Positions 1-40,533 of a DNA stretch of 40,800 nucleotides are shown in pieces. Source of the DNA: a virus (Duplodnaviria; Heunggongvirae; Uroviricota; Caudoviricetes). The notes beneath the pieces were generated by a model, which searched no databases, was not told where the DNA came from, and was given only the letters and a program-made list of their open reading frames with translations. Both the position numbers and the translations under genes were made by a program. The DNA lies in the IMG/VR virus record IMGVR_UViG_2571042621_000026. One strand, 5' to 3'. Each line of letters starts with the position of its first letter. Within the stretch, counting starts at the first letter, position 1.

Positions 1-270
<270 letters not shown>

Positions 271-475
271 TTACCGTTAAATCATTTTAAAATCAGTAAG
301 TTGTATCGAGTTTGTATGCTTTACTGTCATTAACTTACTGTATGTTGATCCAGTGTATTTAACCTTGATAAACTCAGTCCAGCAACACAAAACCGCAACA
401 CATTGCATTTTGTCCCGTAGAAAAGACTTGTATGTGTGAGCTTGTTTTCTGCGCCTACGCAGATAAGGATTGAGA

Positions 476-1873
476 ATGCCGCGCACTGTAACACATAATC
501 CGGATAGCCCCAATAATGACGATGTTTTAGCCGCATCTGAAAAATGGGACGCCTGTAAACCCCCCTATACCAGCGCACACATGAAAATCTGTGTTGCTGC
601 CGCCAAAATCATCCTCGCTGCTTCCGGCGTGGCTCGCCGTTCCAAATACGAAAAAGAGAACTATCTCCGTATCGATTTCAGCAAAGCCGGTAAGGTTACA
701 TTTTACGCCGAGTTTCCAAAAAAGATGGGCCTCAAGGGTAAAAAGCTCGGCGAGTGGCCGGAGCTCGCTATCCAGCTGGCGCGCGAAAAAGCACTAGGTA
801 TGGCTGACGGTGGACTGCGGGCAGAGTCCGTACATGCAGCGCTGGAAATGTACCGGGATGACCTCAAAGCCAAAGTAGCCCGTCAGAAGCTGAGCCCGGA
901 CAGTTTCACAACCTACGGGGTGCGTATCGACCGGATTAAATCAACGTTCGGCGAGCGCGAGGTGTTCAGCGACGTAACATACAGTCGGCTGGTGGAAGTG
1001 CTGGACGAGTGGATCGCCACTCGCTCGAACAATAACGCCCTGGAGTTGTTTGCCGAGCTCCGTCGGTTCTGGAAGTTCTGCGCACCTACTCTTTGCAACG
1101 GCCGCAATGTTGCCGCCAGTCTGCCAGATGATTATGTTTCCTCCCGCGTACAGAAACCTACCCCCACACGGCTTTTTACCGATATTGAATCAATCGCCCG
1201 ACTCTGGCTCAATGTTGCTGCCTGCACCTCTGTACACCAGAAGAATGCTGTTCGCTTCATGATCATCACTGGTGTTCGTCCGATTAATGTCCATAACCTG
1301 CGCTGGGACTACGTTCACGAGGAGGCTGGTGAAATTGTTTATCCGGAAGGGGTTATCGGCATGCGAGGGGCTATGAAAACACAAAAGGCTTTCCGCCTGC
1401 CGATAACGCCTGAGATCCGGCGGATTATCGACGAGCAGAAAGCCTGGCGTGATTCAGTTCCTGAGTGCAACAGGGATTATGTATTTTTGCAGCCACGTGA
1501 TCCAATGCAGCCATTTTCAAAACGATCACTGGATAAGCTGGTGAAAACATACAGCCCGGACGGGGCTGTAAAAGGAATAAAACATGATGGGACTGTTAAA
1601 GGGAAAGACGGTGCATTTAATACGATGTGCCGTAAATTCCTTAAGAGCAATGTTATTGCCTTGATGAAGGAAAGAGGCTATTCCCGCTCAGACCGAAGGG
1701 AAATCAGCCTCCTTTGCCTTCACCACTCCAGCAAGTCAGATGACCCGATGGCAGAACATTACGACTTTTCTGATGAGATTTTACAGGAAGAGATTGCGTT
1801 GAAGCGCGAAGCTTTCGAGGCTCACGAGCGGAGCATACTTGCGCAGGTGGCATTGCTACGGCGGCGAGGTTAA
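476..1873 (+). CDS. int: Tyrosine-type site-specific integrase
   Basis: 466-aa ORF next to the host junction, with an N-terminal arm-binding-like region and a C-terminal region with His and Tyr residues consistent with a tyrosine recombinase. The six-frame ORF begins at a TTG at 470; the first ATG is at 476. The true start could be further downstream. Confidence 0.8.
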   Translation: MPRTVTHNPDSPNNDDVLAASEKWDACKPPYTSAHMKICVAAAKIILAASGVARRSKYEKENYLRIDFSKAGKVTFYAEFPKKMGLKGKKLGEWPELAIQLAREKALGMADGGLRAESVHAALEMYRDDLKAKVARQKLSPDSFTTYGVRIDRIKSTFGEREVFSDVTYSRLVEVLDEWIATRSNNNALELFAELRRFWKFCAPTLCNGRNVAASLPDDYVSSRVQKPTPTRLFTDIESIARLWLNVAACTSVHQKNAVRFMIITGVRPINVHNLRWDYVHEEAGEIVYPEGVIGMRGAMKTQKAFRLPITPEIRRIIDEQKAWRDSVPECNRDYVFLQPRDPMQPFSKRSLDKLVKTYSPDGAVKGIKHDGTVKGKDGAFNTMCRKFLKSNVIALMKERGYSRSDRREISLLCLHHSSKSDDPMAEHYDFSDEILQEEIALKREAFEAHERSILAQVALLRRRG

Positions 1874-2070
1874 TACTGGCTGCGACATTTTTGAATAAAA
1901 GCGTCGACATTTCGGCGCTCATAACGAACTACTTTTGCACTGAAACGAATTGGTGCCAGGATAGCCCGATGACGATGCTTAATATTCCACTCACATAGCG
2001 TTTTCTGTGTAATACCTAACTTTTGGCATACTTCATCCGGGGTGAGTAAATCGTCGGGTTTCTCGCTCAT
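1870..2070 (-). CDS. AlpA-family excisionase / prophage transcriptional regulator
   Basis: 66-aa ORF with an HTH-like segment (LTPDEVCQKLGITQKTL). Its ATG overlaps the stop of the upstream helicase gene (ATGA), and it converges on int. Confidence 0.65.
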   Translation of the reverse strand: MSEKPDDLLTPDEVCQKLGITQKTLCEWNIKHRHRAILAPIRFSAKVVRYERRNVDAFIQKCRSQY

Positions 2071-3458
2071 GCTATACCTCTCTTTTTCATGGCATCGAGC
2101 AGGATGTCCTGCACTGTTCGTTTTGAGTTGCGCCGCTCCATCACCATTTCGTCCATAGTGTCGGCAGCAATAATGTGGTGAATAAATACCGGACGATTGT
2201 GTCCGGCCTGTATCTGTCTGGTTGGGCCGATACGTTCAATAATTTGCTGATATTGCTCCAGGTCCCACCAGTGTGAGAAAAATACCAGTATATTTCCGCC
2301 GTCCTGCATGTTCAGACCGTGGCCCGCGCTGGCTGGGTGTGCAAAGAGAACAGGAATCTTTCCGGAATTCCAGTCACGTAGTGTCTGTGGATCCTGGTCG
2401 AGGTGACGACCGCGAGGAAATGCTTTAAGCAAGCGTTCAAGATCGTGTTTCCAGTGATAAGCAACCAGCACAGGTGCGCCAGCTGCTTCGGTCAGTATGC
2501 TGTCCAGCGCCTGTAGTTTGGTGTCATGCAGTTCTGACCAACTTCCGGTGTCATCTGTGTATACTGCGCCGCTGGCGATTTGCAGACACTTCAGTGTCTT
2601 TGCCGCGGCGTTCGGTGCTTCGATGCCTTCGCCATTCAGCTCGAGGTACATTTCCTTTTCCATTTCACGATACTGCTGACGGGCCTTCGGCGGCATATCC
2701 ACGCGGATTACGTTATGGATGGGGTCTTTGATATCGAACCAGTCGGCCGCATCCAGCGAGAGGGTCACATCGGCTAACGCTCGCTGTATTTCACCCTGTG
2801 AGTGAGCAAAAGGCTCCAGTTTGGTCCAGCTCTGCCCCGGAAACTGTATCGATTTGAACCAGCGTGAGGTAAACGCGCCGTAAGTGCGCCCGAGACGTTG
2901 CCCCTGGTCCACAAACCACGATTGTCCCCACAAATCTACCAGGCCGTTCGGTGCTGGCGTACCGGTGAGATTTATCCAGCGCCGGACATACTTGTGCGCC
3001 ACTTTGCCCAGCGCCGCCGCGCGCTTACCACCACCTCGCAGCCGGAAGGATTTTAGCCGGGTGCTTTCATCTGGAATGACAGTACCGAACGGCCATCGTT
3101 CTCCCAATTCTTCAACCAGCCAGACAAGGTTATCGTAGTTGATTGTGAACACGCTCGCGTTGCTGTTCGCCAGCGCTGTAGAGCGCGCTTTGGCGTTACC
3201 GATGATCGGCTGTACCTCAATATTACGCAGATGCCCCCATTTAACAGCTTCATCAGGCCAAGTGCTTGCTGCAACGCGTAGCGGCGCGAGGACCAGCGCG
3301 GGGCGTGTTTCTGCTCCAGCCATGAAAAGATCTTCCAGCGTGGTGAGTGTCGCTACGGTTTTACCCATCCCCATCCCTGCCCAGATGTTGCCGCGCAGGG
3401 GCTCGATTTGATGATTGATGATGAGATCTTGGTAGGGACGTGGTTTAAAAGTTATCAT
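2067..3458 (-). CDS. SNF2/DEAD-like superfamily II helicase (phage replication)
   Basis: 463 aa with Walker A (GMGKT) and a DExx box (VIPDESTRLKS), plus a C-terminal helicase domain. ATG at 3456-3458. Confidence 0.75.
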   Translation of the reverse strand: MITFKPRPYQDLIINHQIEPLRGNIWAGMGMGKTVATLTTLEDLFMAGAETRPALVLAPLRVAASTWPDEAVKWGHLRNIEVQPIIGNAKARSTALANSNASVFTINYDNLVWLVEELGERWPFGTVIPDESTRLKSFRLRGGGKRAAALGKVAHKYVRRWINLTGTPAPNGLVDLWGQSWFVDQGQRLGRTYGAFTSRWFKSIQFPGQSWTKLEPFAHSQGEIQRALADVTLSLDAADWFDIKDPIHNVIRVDMPPKARQQYREMEKEMYLELNGEGIEAPNAAAKTLKCLQIASGAVYTDDTGSWSELHDTKLQALDSILTEAAGAPVLVAYHWKHDLERLLKAFPRGRHLDQDPQTLRDWNSGKIPVLFAHPASAGHGLNMQDGGNILVFFSHWWDLEQYQQIIERIGPTRQIQAGHNRPVFIHHIIAADTMDEMVMERRNSKRTVQDILLDAMKKRGIA

Positions 3459-7804: not shown

Positions 7805-8439
7805 GTATCAGACACTGTATTGGTAGGAAGGCCTATCATTTCATTTAATGTCTCTCGATGTACTGCTGGTGCTAAAGGGACTGGCGGTGCGTCTGTTGGA
7901 AGCAGTTCTTTAGCTTCGGGCCATACATCCAGTAATCGTTTTACTGTCCGAACTTTATTTAGAGCCGCGCTGACATTCTGTATGATTTCGGTTTCATCAC
8001 TTTTAATTTGTGTGTAGAGAGCATCAAAGCTATAAAACTCCGTTACCAGAGGATCTTCGCCAAGTAGAGTAAATTCTGCAGGTGCTATTTTATTAATATG
8101 CTCGGGGGCTCCTGATTCATAACCTCTGTAGTTGCCATTGAAATAAATGTTTGCTCTGGCTCCAGCCAGATTGAGATATATGCAGCAATCTTTTCGAATT
8201 AAAGAACTATTGGTTTTTAATGCTTCGGGTAATTTTGATACCAGTGTTTCTATTTTTTTTATATTTTTTAATATTTCAGCGTCTTTCTCTACGCCCCCGA
8301 TAGCTGCAAGCCGAACACGTTCGGCCCATTCAACACGAGCAGCTCGTAGTGCTGATTTACGTTTGGGGATACCCGCTTTCTCAAGTGCGTTATTGATGAT
8401 TTGAGTTTTAAGGTGATTAGTTAATACGGGCTGTGACAT
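7798..8439 (-). CDS. Hypothetical protein (low-GC accessory gene)
   Basis: 213 aa from the ATG at 8439, which has GAGGGA upstream; the ORF could extend to 8469. Its 3' end overlaps the convergent 7115..7804 gene by 7 bp. Confidence 0.55.
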   Translation of the reverse strand: MSQPVLTNHLKTQIINNALEKAGIPKRKSALRAARVEWAERVRLAAIGGVEKDAEILKNIKKIETLVSKLPEALKTNSSLIRKDCCIYLNLAGARANIYFNGNYRGYESGAPEHINKIAPAEFTLLGEDPLVTEFYSFDALYTQIKSDETEIIQNVSAALNKVRTVKRLLDVWPEAKELLPTDAPPVPLAPAVHRETLNEMIGLPTNTVSDTQ

Positions 8440-8490
8440 TATTCTTTCCCTCATGAGATACCCCAGCACGTAGCTGGGGGATGAATATTT

Positions 8491-9039
8491 TTAAATCAGT
8501 GCTTCAGCATCAGCACCTTCGCTGATATCGTCGAAATCGTCAGCGCTTGCCACTCCGCCGCCAGCGAATGCATCGCCGTCTCGCAGGAACTGGACTCCGC
8601 CGAGTGAGGCATTAATGCGTTTACCGAAATTATTGTCCTGTGCCCAGATATCGATAACGGCGTTTACATAGCACCCTGCATAGGGACGTCCATCAGCCTG
8701 AATTAGTGGCGAACGATCGCGATCAAGAACAGCTGGGCGCGCTTTGTTAGCAGCGTTCAGGAAGAAATTGCCGGGAAAGCCTTCATACTCTGCTTTTTCA
8801 TCACCATCATGCAGGCACAGATTGAGTTTTTTCTCCAGCTGGTTATAAATGGACTCCCACTTCTCCCCCCATTTTTCCTTCGCTACCTGCTTCATAGCTT
8901 TACGGATTTCTTCCAGTTGTGGGTGTTTGGGAGACATTAAAAATACTGCGGAGAAACGCGGATCGCCTTCGCCGTTTACAGTTTTAGCTTCAAACAGAGA
9001 CGGGAAGGCCAGACGAACATTGTTCAGCTTCAGTTTCAT
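8491..9039 (-). CDS. DUF2815-like phage single-stranded DNA-binding protein
   Basis: 182 aa with an acidic C-terminal tail (DDFDDISEGADAE) typical of SSB partner-binding tails. AAGGA SD. Sits in the replication operon beside the polymerase. Confidence 0.6.
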   Translation of the reverse strand: MKLKLNNVRLAFPSLFEAKTVNGEGDPRFSAVFLMSPKHPQLEEIRKAMKQVAKEKWGEKWESIYNQLEKKLNLCLHDGDEKAEYEGFPGNFFLNAANKARPAVLDRDRSPLIQADGRPYAGCYVNAVIDIWAQDNNFGKRINASLGGVQFLRDGDAFAGGGVASADDFDDISEGADAEALI

Positions 9040-9054
9040 GGGGATTTCCTTAAA

Positions 9055-10356
9055 TCAGATGAGGTCTGCGGTTAGCGTATCGTCGGATACGTCGTCGAAA
9101 TCATTTACAGGGTTGATATTGAGTGCGGGGCGTGGGTCTGACTCGGGAACGACGGTGGGTTTACCATCAGCTCGTGTTATCAGTGCCTCGACTTTTGACC
9201 AACGGCGCGGACTGGCCTTTTTGATAAGTTTTTCGGCTTTTGTGGGACTAATAAGTTTAAAGTCGAATACTTCTTCAGTTTTGTACCTGAACTGGTCCTT
9301 CAGAAGGGCGCGAGCTGCCTCTTCGTCACTCCAGGCCCGGTTACCTTGTTTTTCTGTTACCAGTTTAAACCCCGGTACCGGATGTCCGGCATTGAGTTCA
9401 TTGTGAACCCGGTCCCGTACTGCCTTTAGCCAGGATTCAATAAAGTCGGCCTGGCTATAGATCTCTGCAAGCTGCTCAATGGTTAACAGAGGTACACGTG
9501 CGCTGGCATTGGTGATTATTTCGCTGACAGGCTTTGTCAGATCTTCAAAATCGCTGGCCGCTGTTTGTAAATGCTGCATTTTCTGGGCAGTGCAAATAGC
9601 TTTTGCTTTACAGAAGCGGCACTGTTTTTCTCCAGGTATGAAGTTTTCCAGAGGTAGTGTCTCAATGACTTCGCATTCAGCAATATTGAGAACAAGGATC
9701 GCACTGGTTGCGGCCTTCTGTGCCCGTTCACCGAAAGACTGAAGTTCCTGTACGGTTAACGACCATTCTGAAACGTGGTTGAGCCTTGGCTGGTGAATAA
9801 ATAATCTTACAGTCTCAAAGTCATACAGCATGCTGAATTGTTCGAGCGCACCCAGAGCATACAGTTGTAGTTGCTCATTTTGTTCTGCATCAATGCGGAC
9901 GCCTTTGCCATATTTCAGGTCGTGGATTTGTAATTCGCTACCAGCAATGATTATTCCGTCGGCAGTTCCGAAAGATTCTTCCACACCCGTTATATGTGAG
10001 AAATCAACACGTTGTTCAACCAATAGTTCATTATTCTGTGCAAGAGTCCAGACCGTATCAACATACCGGCCAACGGCTTCGACCATTTCATCATCCACCT
10101 GTGGGCCAGATGTATCATCAGGATTTTCGCGAAGGGGGTATGAGCCGAGAAACATAGAAACATTGCATCCGGCGTAGTGTTCCGGGTGGCTTTGCCTGTT
10201 TCGTAGAACTTTTTCAGCAAGCGCGTGCGCTGCAGTGCCCTCGATTGCAAAAGTTGTTTCTTTATCCGGTTGTGTGGCCTCCAGCGCCAGACTTCCTGGG
10301 CAGCGCATCCATCGATGCGCTGATGATGGAGAAAGTTGTGCATGAACGTCTGGCAT
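9055..10356 (-). CDS. DUF2800-like PD-(D/E)XK nuclease (Cas4/RecB-like)
   Basis: 433 aa. The N-terminal motif [15 protein letters not shown] is typical of DUF2800 nucleases that accompany phage Pol A modules, and there is a C-terminal Cys cluster. GGAGGG SD. Confidence 0.65.
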
Positions 10357-10358
10357 GA

Positions 10359-11261
10359 TTAACCCTCCAGTGCTTTTTCAGCCAGGGTGATTACTTCAGC
10401 GAGATTTTCATCCGTTACTTCACCAAGTTTCCTGGCTCCCTGTTTTTCCAGAATTGCAATAGCTTCTGCCCGGTAACCCCCTTTTGCTAACTGGAGGATC
10501 AACCCTTCAGCTTGTTTGCGTAGTGCCGCGAAATCAATTGTATGGTCATCTTTGGCGTCATTATTCTGGCTGGAATTTGCTGCGTCTCTGCGTGCAAATT
10601 CTTCCTGCAGCTGAAGGTACTCAACACGGTTGATCTCGATATGGCCTTTTTTCAGCATCTCGTTCAACTTGCGTAAGGTGTGGAGTTCACTGGCTGCTGT
10701 GCCGGATACATTTTTGACGTAAAACGGCCCCGTGCGTTCTCCATCCTTGTTACTGGCCTTTTTCGGCTTAACTTCATCACGCCCATCCGCAGGTGCATCA
10801 AGTAGCTGCTCGGCAAAAGCACGTCGCTCGCCGATGGTTGGCAGGTCGTCCCAGAACTTAAGGATGTTACGGGACAGGTCCAGGAGAGCAGGTTTAAGCA
10901 GCGCCCTGGCTCGTTTGACGCCCTGCAATGCGCTGTCGAGAGCATCAATCTGAACAACTCGTTTATCGCCTTCAGCATCACGGTAGGCAACAGCACGTTG
11001 CAGCATGTCTTCTGTGATAGGGGTGGCTACCGGGTAGAAACCAGCCAGTGCGATAACGTCGCTGAACTCCAGATCATCCAGTGTCATTGCCGCTGACATA
11101 TTTTCAGTTTCAGTTGCTGTATCCCGACATTCCTGCACTCGTGAAATCGTGTCAGGATGCATAACAATGCCTGATGCCATTGTGCGGATAAGACGTTCAA
11201 GCAGCGCATTATGTTGTGCCAGAAGTTGATTATTAAGTTCTAGACTGGTTTCTAAACTCAT
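10359..11261 (-). CDS. Hypothetical phage early protein
   Basis: 300-aa ORF, predicted helical, no recognisable motif. ATGA overlap with the upstream gene. Confidence 0.5.
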
Positions 11262-11428
11262 ACTGTGGTCCTCGCTACAAGGAGAATGAAAGTGATGATC
11301 AGACCGAGCGCAGTGGCAACGGCCAGACCGGTCATCAAATCGAAGTTTTTACGGCGATAACGGAGAACATCGCGCCCCGTCAGTCGATGGATGTGTTCAG
11401 GTTTCATCGGTTGTATTCCTTTTTTCAT
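11258..11428 (-). CDS. Small membrane-anchored protein
   Basis: About 50-60 aa with a C-terminal hydrophobic helix. The start is ambiguous: GTG at 11440, or ATG at 11428 or 11407. Confidence 0.35.
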   Translation of the reverse strand: MKKGIQPMKPEHIHRLTGRDVLRYRRKNFDLMTGLAVATALGLIITFILLVARTTV

Positions 11429-11523
11429 ATCGGGGAGCACGCTGTTGCGAGTGCGCTTTCAGACATAAAAAAGCCCGTCACGTGAGGCGGGCAAAGACTA
11501 CACACAGCAATTACATGGATGAT

Positions 11524-11718
11524 TCAGTTGGTATTGTGCGTACGTGGTACCACAAGGTTGAAGCGGACACGCCAGTGCGTTGCAATGGTATGCAGGAAAG
11601 CACCACATCCAGGGCAGTGCTCATAACATTCGTTGATTTGGTATCGTTTTGGCTTTGGTGTCAGAAGCTGTGTTTGGCAAGCAGGGCATTCACCTTTGAG
11701 CGGTTTATACGTTTTCAC
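11524..11718 (-). CDS. Zinc-ribbon protein, first gene of the leftward early operon
   Basis: 64 aa with CPAC...CPGC. GTG start at 11716-11718 with a GAGGA SD 7 nt upstream. Confidence 0.45.
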   Translation of the reverse strand: MKTYKPLKGECPACQTQLLTPKPKRYQINECYEHCPGCGAFLHTIATHWRVRFNLVVPRTHNTN

Positions 11719-12002
11719 GCCGTTTCCTCATTCAGTTCACTTTGGTGGTTCGGCGGCTTCGACTTGTATCAGTAGACAGTGCTTCGCCGCACCCCAAAGG
11801 GAACTTACTGACCCGTATTGCCGACATCCTGTCCCGCCACGGTCCCGACGCATGGTTTAGAGTCGCGCCGTTCGACTTGTGGCTAAAGATACAATTTGAG
11901 TTGTATTGTGTAAACCACAAATGTAGTATTTTGTGGGGTGTGAATACTACTTTATTGATATTTAAGTGAATTTAATTTGTAAGACTTTACAAATGGGGTA
12001 AG

Positions 12003-12021
12003 GGAGGCTGTTACGCCTCCC
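12003..12021 (-). terminator. Hairpin just downstream of the CI-like gene, possible terminator
   Basis: GGGAGGC-tgtta-GCCTCCC stem-loop 20 nt after the repressor stop. The U-tract on the minus-strand RNA is weak. Confidence 0.3.
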
Positions 12022-12040
12022 GATATTTACGGTGGGAATA

Positions 12041-12664
12041 CTAACGTTTACGGCGGTAAATACGGTGTTCGATCATTACACCTATGATCTGTAAGTTCAT
12101 ATCTGCACTACGAAAAATAGGGTAATCAGGATTTAGGGGGATTAATTCAAAGTCGTCGATGCCGATTCCTAATGGACGGTATTTTTTAAATGTAGCTTCG
12201 TGACCGTCGTTTTTGGCGACAACAAACTCCCCTGGTGCAGGACATAGATCAGGATCGATGATAACAATGTCTCCTTCTTTAAACTCTGGTTGCATGCTGT
12301 CGCCATCGATACGTAATGCGAAGCATGTTTCTGGAATGTCAGAGTCTGCCAAAATATATTCAAATTCCCCTGTCAGATCTGTTATGTCTCTTGCTTCTGT
12401 AAGCTCTCCTGCCTGAACGTAACTTAATATAGGTATGCGTCTGGTACTTATCTCCGCGAGAGGCATAATATTTTTACCGTTCAGTAGCCAGTCTGGGCTA
12501 CATTTCAAGGCCTTAGCCAGATCCAGAAGATTGCGTGGCTTTCTGGTTCGTCCACTTTCGATGGATTCTATGGATTGTTGGCTAACCCCTGCAGAATTCG
12601 CTACTTCCACTTGAGTCATTCCTAATTCCAAACGACGTGCTTTAAAACGGGCTGCGAGAGACAT
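12041..12664 (-). CDS. CI-like repressor (HTH_XRE plus S24 LexA-like autopeptidase domain)
   Basis: N-terminal HTH (LGMTQVEVANSAGVSQQSIESIESG) and a C-terminal S24 domain with Ser (GDSM) and Lys. Start taken at the internal ATG at 12664, which has an AAGGA SD; the six-frame ORF extends to 12715. Confidence 0.85.
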   Translation of the reverse strand: MSLAARFKARRLELGMTQVEVANSAGVSQQSIESIESGRTRKPRNLLDLAKALKCSPDWLLNGKNIMPLAEISTRRIPILSYVQAGELTEARDITDLTGEFEYILADSDIPETCFALRIDGDSMQPEFKEGDIVIIDPDLCPAPGEFVVAKNDGHEATFKKYRPLGIGIDDFELIPLNPDYPIFRSADMNLQIIGVMIEHRIYRRKR

Positions 12665-12784
12665 GGGATTAGTCCTTCTGGGTTGTATTAATGTGTATCC
12701 CCACATTAAAAACAATTTTTGTTGTATTTGACAAACCTCGTTTGTTGTTGCTAAATACCACTAAAATTGTATGAGGTGAAAGCA
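12665..12784. promoter_or_regulatory. Divergent immunity promoter/operator region (OR-like) between the CI-like and Cro-like genes
   Basis: 120-bp AT-rich intergenic region containing the palindrome TTAATGTG-N6-CACATTAA (12688..12709) and further short dyads (TTGT..ACAA). Confidence 0.5.
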
Positions 12785-12997
12785 ATGACCTTAGCGACCC
12801 GAGTAAAAGAACGACGTAAAGAACTCAAAATGACGCAAGTTACGTTGGCTGAGCTCACAGGAGTGAGCCAGCAGGCAATAAACAGAATTGAAAGTGGTGT
12901 TATTGCTCGGCCACGTTATCTTCTTGAAATGTCTATAGCATTGGATTGCGACCCTAATTGGCTGTTGTATGGCTTACAAAACGATAAAAAGGCTTAA
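12785..12997 (+). CDS. Cro-like HTH_XRE regulator
   Basis: 70 aa from the ATG at 12785 with a GAGGTGA SD. HTH (LTGVSQQAINRIESG). Divergent from the repressor gene. Confidence 0.75.
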   Translation: MTLATRVKERRKELKMTQVTLAELTGVSQQAINRIESGVIARPRYLLEMSIALDCDPNWLLYGLQNDKKA

Positions 12998-13000
12998 CCC

Positions 13001-15193
13001 ATGTCCGATAGCAAACCATGGGGAGCTACGCCTGATGAGTGGTTTCATTTCGACCTGGTATTGGGGAGAACTGATCATCTTCTCCCAGTTGTATGTAACC
13101 CCAGTGCGACCATATCCCCTGATAGTAAACTGAAAGCGTTGGGTAAGACGCCGAGTCGCTATAACCGGGACCGCCAGGTCACCGGTATTGCTCAATGGAC
13201 CGGGCATGTTGTTACTGAGCATGATTTTGCCCGCTGGTCGAATGAACCGGATTATGGCATCTGCGTGCGTACAGGCCATGGCTGGCTGGCGCTGGACTGT
13301 GATAGCGAAGATGAAGACATTCAGGCAGATATTCGCAAAACGCTTGTGCAACTTCTGGGTGAGTTGCCGCCGCGACGCTGGCGAGCAAACAGTAATAAGT
13401 GTCTGTATCTGCTGGCCGTTGATGGTGATTTCCGTAAGCGTATCCATCGCCTGGCGGGGGATATGGGCATTATCGAGTTGCTGGCGAACGGGCAGCAGTT
13501 CGTTGCCTGCGGTACGCACAGCAGCGGCGCGCGTATTGAATGGGACGGCGGTTTGCCGGATGAACCTCCGGCTATTACTGGTGAGCAGCTTGAAACGCTG
13601 TGGCAGCGCCTGGCTGAACAACTCCCTGTGTCGGTAACCACCGAAGCGGGCAACACGAAGATGCGCGACCGATCAGCATTCACGCCCGGCGCGACGGATG
13701 ATACAGCTGAATATCTTGATGCCAATGGCTGGACGCTGCTGGATGGCGCAAATGGTGAACGATATATCCGCTGTCCGTTTGAAGACGGCCACAGTAGCGG
13801 GGGCGATCCAACAAGCACAGTTTATTTTCCTGCGGGAACCGCGGGCTTTGAGCAGGGGCATTTTAAATGCCTGCATGCCAGTTGTGCGCATCGTGATGAC
13901 GGAGATTTCCTTAATGCCATCGGGATCCGCAACGACGATTTCGAAGATCTGACCAGCACCGAAGTGGCGGAACCTTTACCGCTGCCTGCTTTCGAGCGTG
14001 ATAAATGGGGGCGTATCGAGGCAACCATCAGCAACGCAGCCAAAGCAGTAGTACGCCCTGATTTTGTGGACATCGATATTCGCTTTGACCAGTTCCGCGA
14101 CGAAATCATGTTTGCCCCTGCAGGATCCGGACAATGGCAGGCATTCACCGATGCGGATTATGCGCGCCTGCGCATCACGATGGAAAAGCGGGGATTTAAA
14201 CCTGTTGGTCGTGAACTTATTCGCGATGTGGTGTTACTTGCAGCCGATGAACAACCATTCGATTCAGCGATCACCTGGCTGAACGGACTGGAGTGGGATG
14301 GCGTGCCGCGCATCGAATGTTTCTACCATACGCACTTCGGTACCGCCGACACGCCTTATACCCGTGCGGTGTCTATGTACATGTGGACCGCGTTGGCGGG
14401 GCGAGTACTGGAGCCAGGCATCAAAGCGGATATGGTGCCTATCCTCGTTGGTCCGCAGGGCTGCGGTAAGTCTTCCGGAGTGGAGGCACTGAGCCCTGAT
14501 CCTGCGTTCTTTACTGAAATCTCTTTTGCCGAAAAAGACGATGATCTCGCTCGAAAAATGCGTGGTCGGCTGGTGGCAGAGATTGGTGAACTGCGCGGAC
14601 TTAATACCAAAGAGCTGGAGTCAATCAAAGCGTTTGTGACGCGTACTCACGAAAACTGGATCCCGAAATACCGGGAGTTCGCCACCCAGTTTCCTCGTCG
14701 CCTGGTGTTCGTTGGTACCACCAATGAGGACGAATTCCTTGCGGACAAGACTGGTAACCGTCGCTGGCTTCCCGTGGAAGTGTCGAAAGTCGACGTGAAA
14801 GCGATAAAAAGAGATCTCCTTTTACTTTGGGCTGAGGCTCGTGAGGTGTTTCAGCGTCTGGGGGGTATCCAGTTCCGTGAGGCTGAACAACTGGCAGCGA
14901 GTGTCCATGAACAGTACACCATCAAGGATGCTTGGCTTGAAACGGTAGAGAAATGGCTCGACACGCCAGACCTGATGACTAATGAACTTCCGCGAAATTG
15001 CGAATTTTTACGCGCAAGTGATGTTTTGCGTGATGCGATTGGGCTAAATCCTGACCGCATCGGAAAACGCGAAGAAATGCGAATTAGTAATGTTTTGCAA
15101 AATTGCGGGTATAAGCGTGCCCAAAGGCGAATTGGGGGGAAAATGACTCGAATTTTTGAGGCGGTGTCCCAACCTGTACCAACCTCAAAATAG
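13001..15193 (+). CDS. Primase/helicase (prim-pol N-terminal domain, zinc-binding region, P-loop NTPase; P4 alpha / VirE-like)
   Basis: 730 aa with an acidic LALDCDSEDED motif, a Cys/His cluster (CPFEDGH...CLHASCAH) and Walker A (GPQGCGKSS). Confidence 0.8.
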   Translation: MSDSKPWGATPDEWFHFDLVLGRTDHLLPVVCNPSATISPDSKLKALGKTPSRYNRDRQVTGIAQWTGHVVTEHDFARWSNEPDYGICVRTGHGWLALDCDSEDEDIQADIRKTLVQLLGELPPRRWRANSNKCLYLLAVDGDFRKRIHRLAGDMGIIELLANGQQFVACGTHSSGARIEWDGGLPDEPPAITGEQLETLWQRLAEQLPVSVTTEAGNTKMRDRSAFTPGATDDTAEYLDANGWTLLDGANGERYIRCPFEDGHSSGGDPTSTVYFPAGTAGFEQGHFKCLHASCAHRDDGDFLNAIGIRNDDFEDLTSTEVAEPLPLPAFERDKWGRIEATISNAAKAVVRPDFVDIDIRFDQFRDEIMFAPAGSGQWQAFTDADYARLRITMEKRGFKPVGRELIRDVVLLAADEQPFDSAITWLNGLEWDGVPRIECFYHTHFGTADTPYTRAVSMYMWTALAGRVLEPGIKADMVPILVGPQGCGKSSGVEALSPDPAFFTEISFAEKDDDLARKMRGRLVAEIGELRGLNTKELESIKAFVTRTHENWIPKYREFATQFPRRLVFVGTTNEDEFLADKTGNRRWLPVEVSKVDVKAIKRDLLLLWAEAREVFQRLGGIQFREAEQLAASVHEQYTIKDAWLETVEKWLDTPDLMTNELPRNCEFLRASDVLRDAIGLNPDRIGKREEMRISNVLQNCGYKRAQRRIGGKMTRIFEAVSQPVPTSK

Positions 15194-15421
15194 AGGTTGG
15201 TACATTTTAACTAATTGAATTTAAAGGCCAGTACCAACTGTACCATCTGTACCAACCTAATTACTAAGAACCCCATATATATATATAAGTCGCTTGGGGA
15301 AAAGGTTTGAAAAGAGCTGGTACAGGTGGGTACAGGTTGGTACAGGCCGAACAAGGAATTTTTTGCACATAACAGCGTGTAATAAGCGAATCGGAACTGC
15401 GTTATCCACACCCACGGATAA
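15175..15421. repeat. Iteron array, (TA)7 tract and DnaA-box-like sites: candidate replication origin
   Basis: Perfect inverted repeat TGTACCAACC-N10-GGTTGGTACA (15175..15204) spanning the primase stop. Three tandem GTACCAnCT units at 15231..15257. ATATATATATATAT at 15275..15288. Three tandem TGGTACAGG units in opposite orientation at 15317..15346. TTATCCACA at 15402..15410 and, inverted, CACGGATAA at 15413..15421. Confidence 0.6.
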
Positions 15422-15474
15422 ACAAACGTGGTTCTCAGAAAATTTTTTCGTAGCAAAACGTAGAGGTCAGAGCT

Positions 15475-15897
15475 ATGCGTAATATTCAACAGGTTTTAGA
15501 GCGCTGGGGTGGCTGGGCAGCGAGTGAAGGTGGTAGTGTCTACTTTCCTCCTGTTGCAGCAGGGTTTAAGAATCTGCTACCCGCGACGCAGTCTGGAAGG
15601 CTGAAATGCAGTGACAATGACGGTCTTATCATCAACTCCGCTATGAGCTGCCTGAAGAAAAAAGATCCGTATCTGTGCACGCTCCTTGAGTGGCATTACG
15701 TCCAGGCCATGCCCGTGCGGGCGATGGGTGAGAAGCTCGGCGTATCTCACACCCACGTTCTGAAGAGGCTTCAGGCGGCAGAGGGATTTATTGACGGTTG
15801 CTTAGCCATGCTGGATGTGGTGCTCGAAATGGATCAGTCGGTTCAGTCAAAGCCTCAGGCTATCAGGACTTTGCGTAGGAGCTGCTCGGCGGCATAA
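15475..15897 (+). CDS. Q-type late-gene antiterminator
   Basis: 140 aa. The N-terminal region (VLERWGGWAA..YFPP..AAGFK) and a central LEWHY motif resemble the small phage antitermination-Q family. AGAGGT SD. Positioned upstream of the lysis cassette. Confidence 0.65.
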   Translation: MRNIQQVLERWGGWAASEGGSVYFPPVAAGFKNLLPATQSGRLKCSDNDGLIINSAMSCLKKKDPYLCTLLEWHYVQAMPVRAMGEKLGVSHTHVLKRLQAAEGFIDGCLAMLDVVLEMDQSVQSKPQAIRTLRRSCSAA

Positions 15898-15899
15898 TA
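15871..15899 (+). promoter_or_regulatory. Candidate sigma70 promoter overlapping the Q stop codon
   Basis: TTGCGT, 17-bp spacer, ATAATA (or CATAAT with a 16-bp spacer). Reads into the 113-aa gene. Confidence 0.35.
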
Positions 15900-15928
15900 T
15901 CCAGCAATCAATCACGTAAGGGAACCAG

Positions 15929-16270
15929 ATGGCTCTGATCAGCGTTCGCAACAGATTTGAAAGCTTCATGGAACAGAGGTACCCAGACCTGTCGTTGCAG
16001 GTCAAAGGTAATATTAGCGCATCAATGAAGGCTCAACTTGGCATCAGGATTGAACGAGAATTGTACAGTGAAGATGTTACTTACTGTGATTCAGCAGTTC
16101 AGTTGATGTGGACACTCTTTCAGGCAGGTGTTCTGGCCGAACGAAGAGCTACCAGCGTTACGCTTCCTGCGCTGAAGGCAAAGCCGGATAGCTTCTACGA
16201 TGCGGGTTATAACGAAGGTATTCAGGACTGTCGTAAACATCTGACGGCATCAGGCATCAAGGTAAGATAA
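15929..16270 (+). CDS. Hypothetical protein between Q and the lysis cassette
   Basis: 113-aa ORF with ATG and an AAGGGA SD. Followed by an intrinsic terminator. Confidence 0.5.
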   Translation: MALISVRNRFESFMEQRYPDLSLQVKGNISASMKAQLGIRIERELYSEDVTYCDSAVQLMWTLFQAGVLAERRATSVTLPALKAKPDSFYDAGYNEGIQDCRKHLTASGIKVR

Positions 16271-16336
16271 AAAATAGTTGTGGAATTCCAAAAAGCCGAT
16301 TAGCCTGATATCCGTTGAAAACAGTTCATCACGAAG

Positions 16337-16364
16337 AGGCTTCCGCAAGGGGGCCTTTTTTATT
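16337..16364 (+). terminator. Rho-independent terminator
   Basis: Stem AGGCUUCC/GGGGGCCU (8 bp, 2 G-U pairs) with a GCAA tetraloop, followed by TTTTTTATT. Confidence 0.6.
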
Positions 16365-16588
16365 GCCCCATTCTGGGGAAAAGTTAATAAAACAGGGCTT
16401 TCGCTGCGAAAAAACGCTATGCAGTTTTTGCCCTTTTTTATGCACCTTTTATTCACTCGAATTTCGTCATTCTGGACCACTTAAGTTGATTAAATAGGCC
16501 TTTCATCGCAAATCTATTGCGAGCGGGGATCGTGTGGTTCCTATAACGTACATTATGTTAAATAACTTCCTTTTTTAACAAATTTAAC

Positions 16589-16617
16589 AAGGTTCGCTAT
16601 GGCGAACTTTTTTTGTA
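16589..16617 (+). terminator. Rho-independent terminator upstream of the holin (tR'-like)
   Basis: Perfect stem GGTTCGC/GCGAACC with a UAUG loop, followed by TTTTTTTGT. A possible promoter lies upstream: TTGCGA at 16517 and TATAAC at 16542. Confidence 0.65.
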
Positions 16618-16715
16618 TTCAGGGCCCACCGAAGGACGGCTCATAACCCAATCCTACGGGCGTATACGCAGGGCCCGCCTTTCAACAACACCCCGTAATG
16701 GCGGAGGTGGGAAGT

Positions 16716-17057
16716 ATGAAAATGCACAATGCTCCTCATTCCTGGCCTGACTTACTGGAACTCTTACAAAGTTGGTGGCGTGGAGATACGCCGTTGGGCG
16801 CAGTGGTTATGTCAATTGTTATGGCTGGCTTGCGCATTGCCTATTTTGGCGGTGGCGGCGGCTGGAAACGAAAAACGCTTGAGATTTTGCTCTGTGGTGC
16901 TCTGACGCTGACTTTTGCATCCGCTCTTGAGTATGTCGGATGGCCTAAATCGCTTTCTGTTGCCATTGGTGGTGGTGTTGGGCTGATCGGTGTCGATGCT
17001 ATTCGTGGGGCTGCAATGCGAGTAATCGGTAACAAGTTTGGTGGCTCTAAGGAGTAA
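16716..17057 (+). CDS. Holin with dual-start motif (three predicted TM helices)
   Basis: Begins MKM..., three hydrophobic segments, charged C-terminus. GGAGG SD 8 nt upstream of the ATG at 16716. Immediately precedes the endolysin. Confidence 0.75.
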   Translation: MKMHNAPHSWPDLLELLQSWWRGDTPLGAVVMSIVMAGLRIAYFGGGGGWKRKTLEILLCGALTLTFASALEYVGWPKSLSVAIGGGVGLIGVDAIRGAAMRVIGNKFGGSKE

Positions 17058-37049: not shown

Positions 37050-37897
37050 TGGCAAAAAATGACTTTAAAGCATTCGCAACGGGTAAAAATGCCAATGTTA
37101 TGTCGCAGGAGGAATGGGAAGCGTTGCCTGCGCTTTTATCCGGATTTACAGCAGGGAAAGCATCCAGTGCGCAAGTCAATAAGGTTATTCGGCAGGCCAG
37201 CTTTATTGCTGCAGCTCTGGCCCAGTTTGTAAGTGACAAAACGCAACGGGATGTGCTTGATAATGGTGATCTGCCCGGTTTTGTTGAATTGCTGGGATCG
37301 GGGTTTGCTGTTGAATACCTGAGCCGCAAGAATCCGTTTGGTGATATCAAATCGGATGGCACGGTGAAAACGGCTCTCGAAAACCTTGGTTTGGGAGAAG
37401 GCTCTGCATTACCTGTCGGTGTGCCTGTTCCGTGGCCTTCCGCTACTCCGCCGACAGGCTGGCTGAAATGCAATGGTGCGGCTTTTTCTGCTGAAGAATA
37501 CCCGGAACTGGCAAAGGCTTACCCGACAAATAAATTGCCTGATTTACGCGGTGAATTTATTCGTGGCTGGGATGATGGGCGTAGTGCGGATGCGGGGAGA
37601 ACAATATTATCCGCTCAGGGCGATGCCATACGTAATATCTATGGTGAGTTCAAGACTGTAAACACCGAAAATTATTCAATATGGGAATCAGTAGGCTCGT
37701 TTAAGGGGGCAGTGGTGCCTTTGAACCCCTCAACGAACAATAGTTATTTCTCCTTAGTCAGAAGTATGGTGACAGAAAGGTCCGAGGGCGGTGTTTACCC
37801 AAAAGTGATTGGCCTTGATGCTTCAAGAATTGTTCCAACTGCAAACGAAAATCGACCCCGTAACATTGCCTTTAATTATATCGTGAGGGCTGCCTGA
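37049..37897 (+). CDS. Tail fibre protein (constant N-terminus outside, variable C-terminus inside the invertible segment)
   Basis: 282 aa from the ATG at 37049; the six-frame ORF starts at 37031. A gix-like site lies at codons about 109-117 (LENLGLGE). The C-terminal region resembles a receptor-binding domain. Confidence 0.75.
37374..37399. repeat. Left gix-like recombination site of the tail-fibre invertible segment
   Basis: CTCTCGAAAACC-TT-GGTTTGGGAGAA. 15 bp (37386..37400) are an exact inverted copy of 38984..38998. Confidence 0.6.
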
Positions 37898-38502
37898 TGG
37901 ATAAAGCTATATTAAATAAGGAACTCATCGCCACAAAGGCGGGAGATATTACCGTTTATAATTATGATGGTGAAACACGAGAATATATTTCCACATCAAC
38001 CGAATATCTTGCTGTGGGTGTCGGTATCCCGGCATGTTCCTGTTTAGATGCTCCTGGCTCATATAAAGCTGGTTATGCAATTTGCCGTTCTGCAGATTTT
38101 AACTCATGGGAATATGTGCCAGACCATCGCGGTGAAATCGTCTATAGCACCGAAACAGGAGAATCAAAAGAAATCACAGCTCCGGGTGATTACCCTGAAA
38201 AGACAACCACTATCGCCCCGTTAACGCCATACGATAAATGGGATGGTGAGAAATGGGTGACGGATACCGAGGCACAGCATAGAGCAGCAGTAGACATGGC
38301 AGAAACACAGCGGCAGTCGCTGATTGATGCTGCAATGGTTTCCATTAGTCTGATTCAACTGAAATTGCAGGCCGGGCGGAAGCTGACGCAGGCAGAAAAC
38401 ACCCGACTTAACGCCGTGCTGGATTACACTGACGCGGTGATGGCAACAGATACCAGCACCGCGTCAGATGTCATCTGGCCAGTTCCTCCTGAGACGGTTT
38501 AA
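37897..38502 (+). CDS. Tail fibre assembly protein (Tfa / U-like)
   Basis: 201 aa immediately downstream of the tail fibre gene. Confidence 0.7.
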   Translation: MDKAILNKELIATKAGDITVYNYDGETREYISTSTEYLAVGVGIPACSCLDAPGSYKAGYAICRSADFNSWEYVPDHRGEIVYSTETGESKEITAPGDYPEKTTTIAPLTPYDKWDGEKWVTDTEAQHRAAVDMAETQRQSLIDAAMVSISLIQLKLQAGRKLTQAENTRLNAVLDYTDAVMATDTSTASDVIWPVPPETV

Positions 38503-38692
38503 TCTCAATCAGAATGGGTTCTCCCTTCTCGTTAACAGATATTTCCATTCCTTCAGGGATTTCAGATGCAGTAAAAAACCAGTTATCTTCTGGTAATTCA
38601 ACAGCCCCGGTCACGTCATGAAGACCGGGGATTACTTCAGTCAAAGTAACAGGATTAAACAGGCGCACAATAAACCCTCCAGGAAAAAGCAT
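38471..38692 (-). CDS. Alternative (inverted-orientation) tail fibre assembly/chaperone candidate (U'-like)
   Basis: 73-aa minus-strand ORF inside the invertible segment, downstream of the alternative fibre C-terminus. Unusually short. Confidence 0.35.
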   Translation of the reverse strand: MLFPGGFIVRLFNPVTLTEVIPGLHDVTGAVELPEDNWFFTASEIPEGMEISVNEKGEPILIEIKPSQEELAR

Positions 38693-38998
38693 TTATTGAT
38701 GGTGTTCCGTCGTACATCTGGCAGCGGACATAAAAACCGGTATTAGTGACCTGGTCATCCACGATCATTGAAACGTGAACGTTATTAGATGTGCCCCCAT
38801 AATCCGATCCTATTCTTTCCGCTATGCTGATAAAACGTGAAAGCTTAGGTAGCGCAATTGGATAAACGACTTTAGCCAGTCCATTATCATTAGAACCCCC
38901 CGTTCCAAAGACTTCTATTGCACCATCTGACCAGCGTATCCACGCACCATTGGCATTAGCTCCTCGCTGAATGACATATCTGGCTTCTCCCAAACCAA
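38655..38998 (-). other. Alternative tail-fibre variable C-terminal coding segment (S'v-like)
   Basis: Minus-strand reading frame that runs through the right gix site (...VGLGE|ARYVIQRG...). After inversion it would be fused to the constant part of the fibre gene. Confidence 0.5.
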
Positions 38999-39010
38999 CG
39001 TTTATGAAAA
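38985..39010. repeat. Right gix-like recombination site
   Basis: TTCTCCCAAACC-AA-CGTTTATGAAAA. Resembles the Gin/Hin/Cin/Pin crossover-site consensus as recalled, and is inverted relative to the left site. Confidence 0.6.
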
Positions 39011-39064
39011 TGAAGAAATAACAAGCAAATGGCATCATTCCTGCTTTTACTAGGGGGATCCACC

Positions 39065-39379
39065 ATGCTTATTGGCCACGTACGCGTATCAACAAATGAC
39101 CAGAACACCGATCTACAACGTAATGCGTTGAACTGTGCAGAATGCGACCGGATTTTTGAAGACAAGATAAGCGGTACAAAGTCCGAAAGGCCGGGACTGA
39201 AAAAACTGCTCAGGACATTATCGGCAGGTGACACTCTGGTTGTCTGGAAGCTGGATCGGCTGGGGCGCAGTGTGCGGCATCTTGTCGTGCTGGTGGAGGA
39301 GTTGTGCGAACAAGGTGTTAATTTTAGTAGTTATGTTATTACAGGTGGGGGATTTCTCCCCCTTATGCAGATTTTCTAG
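39065..39379 (+). pseudogene. Truncated Gin/Pin/Hin-family serine DNA invertase (catalytic N-terminus only)
   Basis: MLIGHVRVSTNDQNTDLQRNAL...DTLVVWKLDRLGRS... resembles invertase residues 1 to about 88. The similarity ends after GVNF and the ORF stops 17 codons later, so the C-terminal HTH DNA-binding domain is missing. Confidence 0.7.
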
Positions 39380-39383
39380 TTAA

Positions 39384-40232
39384 CTATTGGCGAAGTGGCC
39401 ATATTTTTCTGTTTTTTAAAAAACTATCTTCAACTATATAACTGCAACAATGTTCACTAAGGCCATAAAAACTAATTATTCCATATTTATGAGAAGCTAT
39501 ATCAGACAGTTCTGCTAATACTGTGGCAAGCCAACGAGCGATGCTAAGAGAATAGAATCTTCCCCACTTTTGAACAATGGTATTTTGTCCAGTACGGATG
39601 GAGGATGATATAAGGTCTTGCATAATGTTGGTACTTTCATTCATATACATGACCGTTGTATACGGTGAAAGAGTGGCATTGATAAACCTAGCATTTTCTT
39701 CAACACGTCTTTGTTCAACTGTATAATAATAATAATGTTTTTCAAGGATACTCTCGGCTACTTCTCCCCACCATTTATTAATAGGTTCATTATTGGTTAA
39801 ATTGGGGCTGCTTAATGAGGAGAAATTTGCGTAACGTCCCCGTCGGGCATCAGCAAAGGAATCTAAACATTCAAGTATTTTGTAGGTAATTTTATGTGTA
39901 GGACGTGAATATCTCAGAGATAGTTGCATTTTTTTAGAAATACTATCAACCTCGTTGGTTAATTCAATGAGCTTATGTCCAAATTTTCTTACAATATTCT
40001 CGTCAGGCATTTTCCCTTTGTGTTCAATGGAATAGTGTGCAACAAGTATTAGTTTAGCAAGTCTCTCAAAACCTACAGAAAGCCCAAAAAATGCTGTGTA
40101 ATATTCACCTATTTTGTCTGCATAATTGGCTTTACCTATGGCTGTTGCCCCAGAACCAATGAGCTGTGTAACTAAAGATGCTTCTCGGCCCAGAGCGTGC
40201 CATGCTGGAATATCCCAGGGATTTTTATTCAC
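39384..40232 (-). CDS. Hypothetical protein in the AT-rich cargo block
   Basis: 282-aa ORF. GTG start at 40232 with AAGGA 10 nt upstream. Low GC. No motif recognised. Confidence 0.5.
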   Translation of the reverse strand: MNKNPWDIPAWHALGREASLVTQLIGSGATAIGKANYADKIGEYYTAFFGLSVGFERLAKLILVAHYSIEHKGKMPDENIVRKFGHKLIELTNEVDSISKKMQLSLRYSRPTHKITYKILECLDSFADARRGRYANFSSLSSPNLTNNEPINKWWGEVAESILEKHYYYYTVEQRRVEENARFINATLSPYTTVMYMNESTNIMQDLISSSIRTGQNTIVQKWGRFYSLSIARWLATVLAELSDIASHKYGIISFYGLSEHCCSYIVEDSFLKNRKIWPLRQ

Positions 40233-40360
40233 TTTATTATTTTCCTTTGCTCATAAATTTAAATTGTTTGAGTATCTCATAAAATATAGGGAGGTGGTTA
40301 AGGTTGTTGATCGCATATAATAGCTATTGAAAGTCAAGAACTCGGTTTTATGTTCTACCA

Positions 40361-40399
40361 CTAATTAATATATTGTGAGTCTGACAATATATTAATTAG
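40361..40399. promoter_or_regulatory. Perfect 16-bp inverted repeat, candidate operator
   Basis: CTAATTAATATATTGT-gagtctg-ACAATATATTAATTAG in the intergenic region upstream of the 282-aa gene. Confidence 0.4.
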
Positions 40400-40533
40400 T
40401 ATGATCAAACCAGCCATCAACTGATTCCTTGTATCTTTCAGAGTCTCCAGAACAAAAGCCTTAACGAATTCCTTATTTGTGAGTGCCTTACCAAAAGCCC
40501 ATTGTTGCAGGGAACGAGTATAAAACTCGCCAG

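Follow-up and report, generated by a model that had tools for sequence, protein, structure and literature searches.

Crossover sites and fibre modules of the switch

The viral sequence IMGVR_UViG_2571042621_000026 (40,800 nucleotides, referred to here in its full length as the window) carries at its right end a tail-fibre host-range switch that resembles the P segment and Pin invertase of the Escherichia coli element e14, a member of the Din family of inversion systems. The locus consists of an invertible segment bounded by two inverted crossover sites, a tail-fibre gene that extends into the segment from the left, two opposed sets of fibre ends with their accessory genes, the remnant of an invertase gene and a cargo gene that occupies the place of the invertase gene's 3' half (Table 1). 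The window is 100% identical to part of the chromosome of E. coli strain 97-3250 (NZ_CP027599.1; human stool, USA), and a position in that record minus 1,373,297 gives the position in the window. Sister genomes contain exact inversions of the segment between near-identical flanks, although the invertase gene next to it is broken.

Table 1. Coordinates of the switch and adjoining genes in the window
Feature	Position	Strand	Basis or remark
Invertible P-type segment, ~1.61 kb	37387..38997		Exact inversion between near-identical flanks in sister genomes
Tail-fibre gene as now fused, 282 residues	37049..37897	+	Pfam Collar 2.3e-15; PHROG tail-fibre families
Left crossover site, pixL type	37374..37399	-	Reverse complement 26/26 to e14 pixL
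Parts of left site	outer half-site 37374-37385; central dinucleotide 37386-37387; inner half-site 37388-37399	-	
Tail-fibre assembly protein, module A, 201 residues, TfaE type	37897..38502	+	Pfam Caudo_TAP 2.3e-29; 89% amino acid identity to K-12 TfaE
Small 65-residue gene accompanying module B	38471..38668	-	phrog_5400, 9e-23
Alternative fibre C-terminus B	38655..38998	-	Without promoter or N-terminus in present orientation
Right crossover site, pixR type	38985..39010	+	26/26 to e14 pixR
Parts of right site	inner half-site 38985-38996; central AA 38997-38998; outer half-site 38999-39010	+	
Invertase stub	39065..39379	+	Codons 1-89 (39065-39331) Pin-homologous, then 15 unrelated codons and stop
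282-residue cargo gene, HEPN-like predicted fold	39384..40232	-	Cassette in place of pin 3' half

The arms of the inverted repeat (37381-37400 and 38984-39003) match at 19 of 20 positions. Their 15-bp exact core, TTGGTTTGGGAGAAG, is present at just two places in the 40.8-kb window, one per strand; 100 shuffles give an expectation of 0. The repeat belongs to two inverted 26-bp sites of dix type, whose central dinucleotides match (AA core). On the top strand the left site reads CTCTCGAAAACC TT GGTTTGGGAGAA; its reverse complement, with the inner half first, is TTCTCCCAAACC AA GGTTTTCGAGAG, and the right site is TTCTCCCAAACC AA CGTTTATGAAAA. Both are equal at all 26 bases to pixL and pixR of e14 as listed for the Din family (Table 3 of PMC3241671), and the sites of K-12 MG1655 are equal to them as well. 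The 15-bp core is also part of TTGGTTTGGGAGAAGG, the repeat reported for the P segment of e14 (PMC12529663). The left site lies in frame within the tail-fibre gene, at about codon 113 of the 282-residue open reading frame (ORF). A single C/G difference beside the central dinucleotide keeps with its flank in both orientations, as seen in seven loci, which fits strand exchange at the center of the site.

The constant N-terminal part of the fibre, residues 1 to about 113, is encoded outside the segment (37049 to about 37386), and C-terminus A, which has a Collar domain, is encoded inside. Across this junction the gene is 94.6% identical at the nucleotide level to the stfE side of K-12 e14. C-terminus B, which has a weak Gp53-like_C match, becomes the end of a 226-residue fibre after inversion, and precisely this fusion is annotated in the O111:H11 strain 8D. 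The 282-residue fusion of the window and the 226-residue fusion of 8D have residues 1 to about 113 in common. The PHROG families of residues 1-122 are common to both forms, and the C-terminal families differ. The segment therefore presents two opposed, alternative fibre C-termini, each with an accessory gene and each in frame with a constant N-terminus that is located outside.

The accessory gene of module B was considered as a truncated Tfa, and this was rejected because its homologues in Enterobacterales (141 in number) are mostly 57-65 residues long, with longer calls of 72-90 residues among them. No similarity is found between the 65-residue ORF and the 147-residue Tfa of sister loci. It is a genuine small gene, presumed to encode an accessory protein or chaperone. 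An earlier, first-pass annotation of this DNA had described inverted gix-like sites with a 15-bp exact core, had placed the left one inside the tail-fibre ORF at the junction of constant and variable parts, and had recognized a fibre C-terminus with Tfa on the plus strand opposed to an alternative C-terminus with a short chaperone on the minus strand. This description agrees with the present results, the sites being in fact pix.

The truncated invertase and the cargo gene

The invertase gene starts with an ATG at 39065, and its match to intact pinE ends at about 39325-39331, after 89 of about 184 codons. Over these 89 residues the stub is 90% identical to K-12 PinE. It matches positions 2-98 of the 145 positions of the Pfam Resolvase profile and aligns with residues 1-91 of the 193-residue Gin in the structures 4M6F and 3UJ3. 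The region of the catalytic serine (VRVSTNDQ) is kept, as the first-pass annotation had stated, and the DNA-binding C-terminus is missing, again as stated there: helix E and the helix-turn-helix (HTH) domain are gone, Pfam finds no HTH_7 match in the stub, and RefSeq labels the gene 'incomplete; missing C-terminus'. Both Resolvase and HTH_7 are found in the intact relative that strain EH2252 carries at this locus. What adjoins the segment is thus a small serine recombinase with neither a complete catalytic domain nor helix E nor the C-terminal HTH. By what is established for serine recombinases, this stub is unable to dimerise on DNA or to bind the sites. Judging from its sequence, the prophage's own invertase is dead.

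Homology to the relative with intact pin is lost over the interval 39326 to 40518. There the window has a 282-residue ORF on the minus strand, whereas EH2252 has the rest of pinE and a different ORF of 215 residues. The truncation was therefore caused by an exchange of cargo cassettes, one breakpoint of which lies inside pin. The 282-residue cargo gene is the cause of the truncation and is positioned outside the switch itself.

The slot directly downstream of pin holds variable cargo, namely mcrA in K-12 e14, the 215-residue ORF in EH2252 and the HEPN-like ORF in the window. Just past the pin breakpoint and downstream of the minus-strand cargo gene, an inverted repeat (GGGGGA-TTTC-TCCCCC) is found at 39345-39365, which may be a terminator brought in with the cassette. 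In addition, an AT-rich, near-perfect palindrome with 20-nucleotide arms (95% complementary, 1-nucleotide spacer) occupies 40360-40400, between the cargo gene and the right end of the prophage. It is kept in sister loci and may have a regulatory function or a connection with att.

The 5'-terminal 267 bp of pin are still present, and identity to e14 is 94% from the right site to the end of this retained part. In Din systems the enhancer is said to lie in the 5' part of the invertase gene, according to the 1985 work of Kahmann, of Johnson and Simon, and of Huber. Measured by its spacing from hixL, the counterpart of the proximal Fis region of Hin would be at about 39110-39180, inside the retained stub; in Hin itself the proximal Fis site is about 100 bp from hixL (PMC3798978). 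A crude scan of the stub for Fis-like 15-mers spaced 48 bp apart finds no pair. The retained part of pin may hold a functional enhancer.

Orientation of the segment in other genomes

At least 40 complete E. coli genomes have the stub followed by the 282-residue ORF, and the sequence of the truncation junction is identical in the four other loci that were checked. The stub alleles are mosaic. Codons 5-65 have up to 40 nucleotide differences between lineages (28 synonymous, 12 non-synonymous), and codons 66-89 together with the junction are identical. The likely history is a single truncation, after which recombination took place further upstream. The stub of 97-3250 carries Y5H, G26E, E28D and L29R relative to the intact PinE of EH2252 and to the ST38-type stub, and MS20658 shares only the first three of these. 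The allele pattern suggests that the truncated gene has since recombined with other pin alleles and is under relaxed constraint.

Behind this common junction, both orientations of the segment are found in three lineages, with the breakpoints exactly at the sites. In the enterohaemorrhagic E. coli (EHEC) group, module A is fused to the constant N-terminus in 97-3250 (two independent assemblies) and 10_253, and module B in 8D, 00_3230, 01_3327, 03_3013 and B1_2, which amounts to 3 versus 5 if both 97-3250 assemblies are counted. The flanks of 8D are 99.9% and 99.8% identical to those of the window, stub and cargo gene included, and the segment (37381-39003) is inverted at 99.8% identity. MS20658 and M-17 form a second pair (1 versus 1), with 100% and 99.8% identity in the flanks and 99.9% identity between the oppositely oriented segments. 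In the ST38-type group, 18 genomes that are 100% identical have one orientation, and 22AR0747, MSB1_6C and 1296KP have the other (18 versus 3), with flanks that are 100% identical over 1290 and 4614 nucleotides. The repeats are only 20 bp long and assembly artefacts are therefore unlikely. Opposite orientations behind the same stub in three lineages mean that at least three inversions have taken place since the truncation.

The skewed ratios (3:5 and 18:3) suggest rare events rather than free switching. With intact e14, about 30% of the cells in a culture are inverted, and inversions are found in 33% of 562 genomes (PMC12529663).

Candidate helper invertases

The chromosome of 97-3250 encodes an intact Gin-like invertase of 186 residues, WP_000904930.1 (NZ_CP027599.1, 3342012-3342572), which was found by probing this genome with the Mu-like prophage region of strain EH031. 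Resolvase and HTH_7 are both complete in this protein, whose identity to PinE is 72%, and the gene has a G-like invertible fibre region, com and mom as neighbors. The first-pass annotation had made an exception for a trans-acting invertase, such as an intact Gin, Pin or Hin homologue in the rest of the genome, and the chromosome does encode one. The Mu-like prophage (3334689-3347573) has its own G-type invertible fibre region, with 182-nucleotide inverted arms at 79% identity.

By blastn, sequences like the invertase N-terminus are located in three places in 97-3250, 97_3250 and 10_253, in two in 00_3230 and B1_2, and in one in 8D, 01_3327 and 03_3013. Megablast with the Gin-like gene gives two extra places in 97-3250 and 10_253, one in 00_3230 and B1_2, and none in 8D, 01_3327 and 03_3013. 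These counts make it very probable that 97-3250 has two Gin-like copies, one of which has been located. Within the EHEC group the orientation of the window is present exactly in the genomes with two Gin-like genes, and the three genomes with none all have the opposite one. This association between orientation and Gin-like copy number, drawn from few and related genomes, is suggestive. In the ST38-type genomes and the MS20658/M-17 pair, a pinE-like gene is present elsewhere in some and is shown in none of the others.

Cross-complementation within the Din family is classical and, by analogy, the Gin-like enzyme might act on pix sites. Inversion in trans across prophages has been shown by experiment: the e14 P segment is inverted by PinQ of prophage Qin, the Hin segment by Fin of Fels-2 and the Mu G segment by PinE (PMC12529663).

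Other parts of the 97-3250 genome were inspected as well. No Din invertase is found in the ssrA region, the serX island, the wrbA region or the etk site (the site of the Mu-like prophage in EH031), and no small serine recombinase in the first 50 kb of the 120-kb IncI1-type plasmid. A search of the chromosome with an anchor and a pinE C-terminal-half query found no pinE-like C-terminus elsewhere, but this query is blind to the Gin-like gene and the result is no proof of absence. The wrbA element (3752248-3762881) contains a 547-residue large serine recombinase and, separately, an intact small one of 191 residues. The latter was rejected as a likely helper, being 34% identical to PinE and having no blastn match to the stub.

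A probable non-autonomous switch and its alternatives

We estimate at about 0.7 the probability that the locus is a non-autonomous tail-fibre host-range switch of the e14 P/Pin type (Din family), which is flipped rarely and in trans. A dimer of a Din invertase would bind to each 26-bp site and cut at the central AA/TT dinucleotide, and the strands would then rotate. The resulting inversion would join the constant fibre N-terminus either to C-terminus A, accompanied by TfaE, or to C-terminus B, accompanied by its 65-residue partner. Cutting at the central dinucleotide and subunit rotation under the control of Fis and the enhancer are known from Hin and Gin (PMC3798978). The prophage's own enzyme was lost when the cargo cassette took the place of codons 90-184 and with them of helix E and the HTH domain. 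The two sites are intact, and so is the 267-bp 5' part of pin, the place of the enhancer in Din systems. A switch with a dead invertase and with intact sites and pin 5' end would be non-autonomous. Its segment would keep one orientation until a related invertase is supplied in trans, and this has probably occurred repeatedly as the prophage lineage evolved. The likely donor in 97-3250 would be the intact Gin-like invertase of the Mu-like prophage. We infer that role for the Gin-like enzyme, as we would for any particular enzyme, and past flips were probably made by the invertases of other prophages.

Several observations weigh against flipping in trans. The Gin-like enzyme has sites of its own, the gix-like sites of the Mu-like prophage of 97-3250, with GA at the core and half-sites unlike those of pix. 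Megablast detects no Gin-like gene in the ST38-type genomes or in the MS20658/M-17 pair, and in at least 1296KP and MS20658 no pinE-like C-terminal half is found elsewhere in the chromosome. In K-12, deletion of pinE locks the e14 P segment, although pinQ and pinR are present in the chromosome (PMC12529663). Trans-complementation at native expression can therefore be negligible. Furthermore, the two independent assemblies of 97-3250 have the same orientation. The agreement of the assemblies and the K-12 deletion favour switching that is slow, or locked, on the laboratory time scale.

The first-pass annotation had gone further and regarded the switch as probably frozen in its present orientation. 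The anatomy on which it based this (sites, junction, modules and truncation) stands, but 'frozen' as a lasting state is unsupported, since three lineages with the same junction show both orientations. A narrower version would have the switch effectively frozen in 97-3250, the differences in orientation being left over from rare events in ancestors or other hosts in which a helper was present. This version accommodates the stub that lacks helix E and the DNA-binding domain, the single orientation of 10_253 and both 97-3250 assemblies, the locking of the segment by the K-12 deletion, and within-lineage ratios (18:3, 5:3) that are skewed and not about 1:1. It is less easily reconciled with at least three separate inversions after a single truncation event, or with the intact Gin-like invertase, probably in two copies, in this very genome. 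In addition, the orientation of the window is the minority one in its lineage and is seen only with two Gin-like copies. We regard this version as unlikely; it is the only serious rival to a switch flipped in trans, and it is so only as a statement about rate.

Alternatively, the inversions could have arisen without any site-specific invertase, by general recombination (RecA-dependent or illegitimate) across the short inverted repeats. 1296KP and MS20658 differ in orientation from their close relatives and have no recognisable chromosomal helper, and repeats of 15-20 bp are exact enough for very rare homology-driven events. However, the exact homology is limited to 15 bp, and RecA usually requires a longer stretch for efficient exchange. 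The breakpoints, moreover, are always within canonical, fully conserved 26-bp Din sites, and helpers that were plasmid-borne or have since been lost could account for the genomes in which none is recognized. This mechanism is improbable. Least probable of all is homologous replacement, in which the P region would have been imported from a related prophage with an intact invertase, one crossover lying in the constant part of the fibre gene and the other at the 5' end of pin: the mosaic stub, variable in codons 5-65 and identical in codons 66-89 and at the junction, does testify to recombination upstream of the junction, but an imported segment would be expected to show differences, whereas the members of each lineage pair are 99.8-100% identical in the flanks and 99.8-99.9% identical in the segment, which is inverted exactly at the sites.

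The carrier prophage

The prophage, about 41 kb in length, is inserted between yfhL and yfhH of E. coli 97-3250, and the switch is at its right end. The left end has a tyrosine integrase followed by a replication module (DNA polymerase, helicase, VapE, DUF2800/2815). A LexA-like repressor, the Q antiterminator and lysis genes are in the middle, followed by the terminase, portal and head genes. The right part comprises a contractile-tail and baseplate module (DUF3383, DUF3277, baseplate J, DUF2612) and then the fibre region. The invertase alone is flagged as a pseudogene, and all other genes are unflagged. The carrier looks like an otherwise intact prophage of the myovirus type.

The replication module (window ~8000-17000; record 1381095-1390000) includes a gene annotated as a putative nucleotide-modification protein of the Nmad5 family, with a family A-type DNA polymerase, DUF2800, DUF2815, VRR-NUC and VapE as its neighbors. 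The phage may carry modified DNA. Two 'phage' records with the same stub, ON470579 and ON470588, were rejected as virion genomes. They are predicted prophages that include host genes, and therefore give no support for inducibility of the prophage.

Implications

The locus is a clean natural case of a phase-variable receptor-binding switch that has lost its own recombinase, has kept its cis elements and, by the comparative data, still changes state. It is possible, although we lean against it, that host-range switching has been outsourced for good throughout this widespread lineage (at least 40 complete E. coli genomes). A defence-type cargo would have been acquired at the cost of the pin 3' half, the pix sites and the enhancer-bearing stub would be under selection, and the flips would be performed by Din invertases (Gin-like, PinE-like) of co-resident prophages. 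If this is true, host range is set by the other prophages that share the cell, a dependency similar to that of a satellite on its helper.

In poly-lysogens, such as O26 and O111 EHEC, the host range or a surface-blocking phenotype of a prophage may be determined by an invertase that another prophage encodes. PinQ and e14 provide an experimental precedent for such a cross-prophage effect (PMC12529663). For annotation, the caution is that a switch should not be called locked from local gene content alone. Since mechanism and family have been known for a long time, the wider significance is modest.

Comparison with known systems

The closest known system is the e14 P segment with PinE of K-12 (GenBank X01805), reportedly described by Plasterk and van de Putte in 1985. 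Besides the pix sites and the region from the right site into pin, the two share module A (the StfE-type Collar C-terminus and TfaE), which is 89-95% identical, and the gene order of fibre, tfa, opposed tfa, opposed fibre end, pin and cargo slot. The carriers are different: here it is a complete-looking 41-kb myovirus-type prophage at yfhL/yfhH, whereas e14 is defective and is located at icd. Module B consists of another C-terminus with a 65-residue partner, compared to a gp53-like C-terminus with TfaP in e14, and the segment is 1.61 kb long rather than 1.8 kb. Finally, pin is cut here after codon 89, and the HEPN-like ORF occupies the position that mcrA has in e14.

Orphaned or cross-served invertible segments are known in principle. 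Fin of Fels-2 is said, from the work of Kutsukake et al. in 2006, to act on the Salmonella H segment. In that case, as in the action of PinQ of Qin on e14 (PMC12529663), a segment is flipped by the invertase of another prophage in the same cell. The cognate enzymes, Hin and PinE, are intact there and the second enzyme is an extra one, whereas here the cognate enzyme is gone, any inversion has to be driven from outside, and the action in trans is a probable one.

The G segment of Mu, with Gin, has the same general organization, in which a constant fibre N-terminus (S) is combined with alternative C-termini, each with an assembly protein (U or U'), and a Din gene adjoins the segment. The stub is 70% identical over 89 residues to the resident Gin-like protein of 97-3250. 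Unlike the switch described here, Mu has sites with a GA core and other half-sites, and keeps its invertase. The switch of the window is homologous to e14 P/Pin without an intact adjacent invertase, and is a degraded example of a well-known system.

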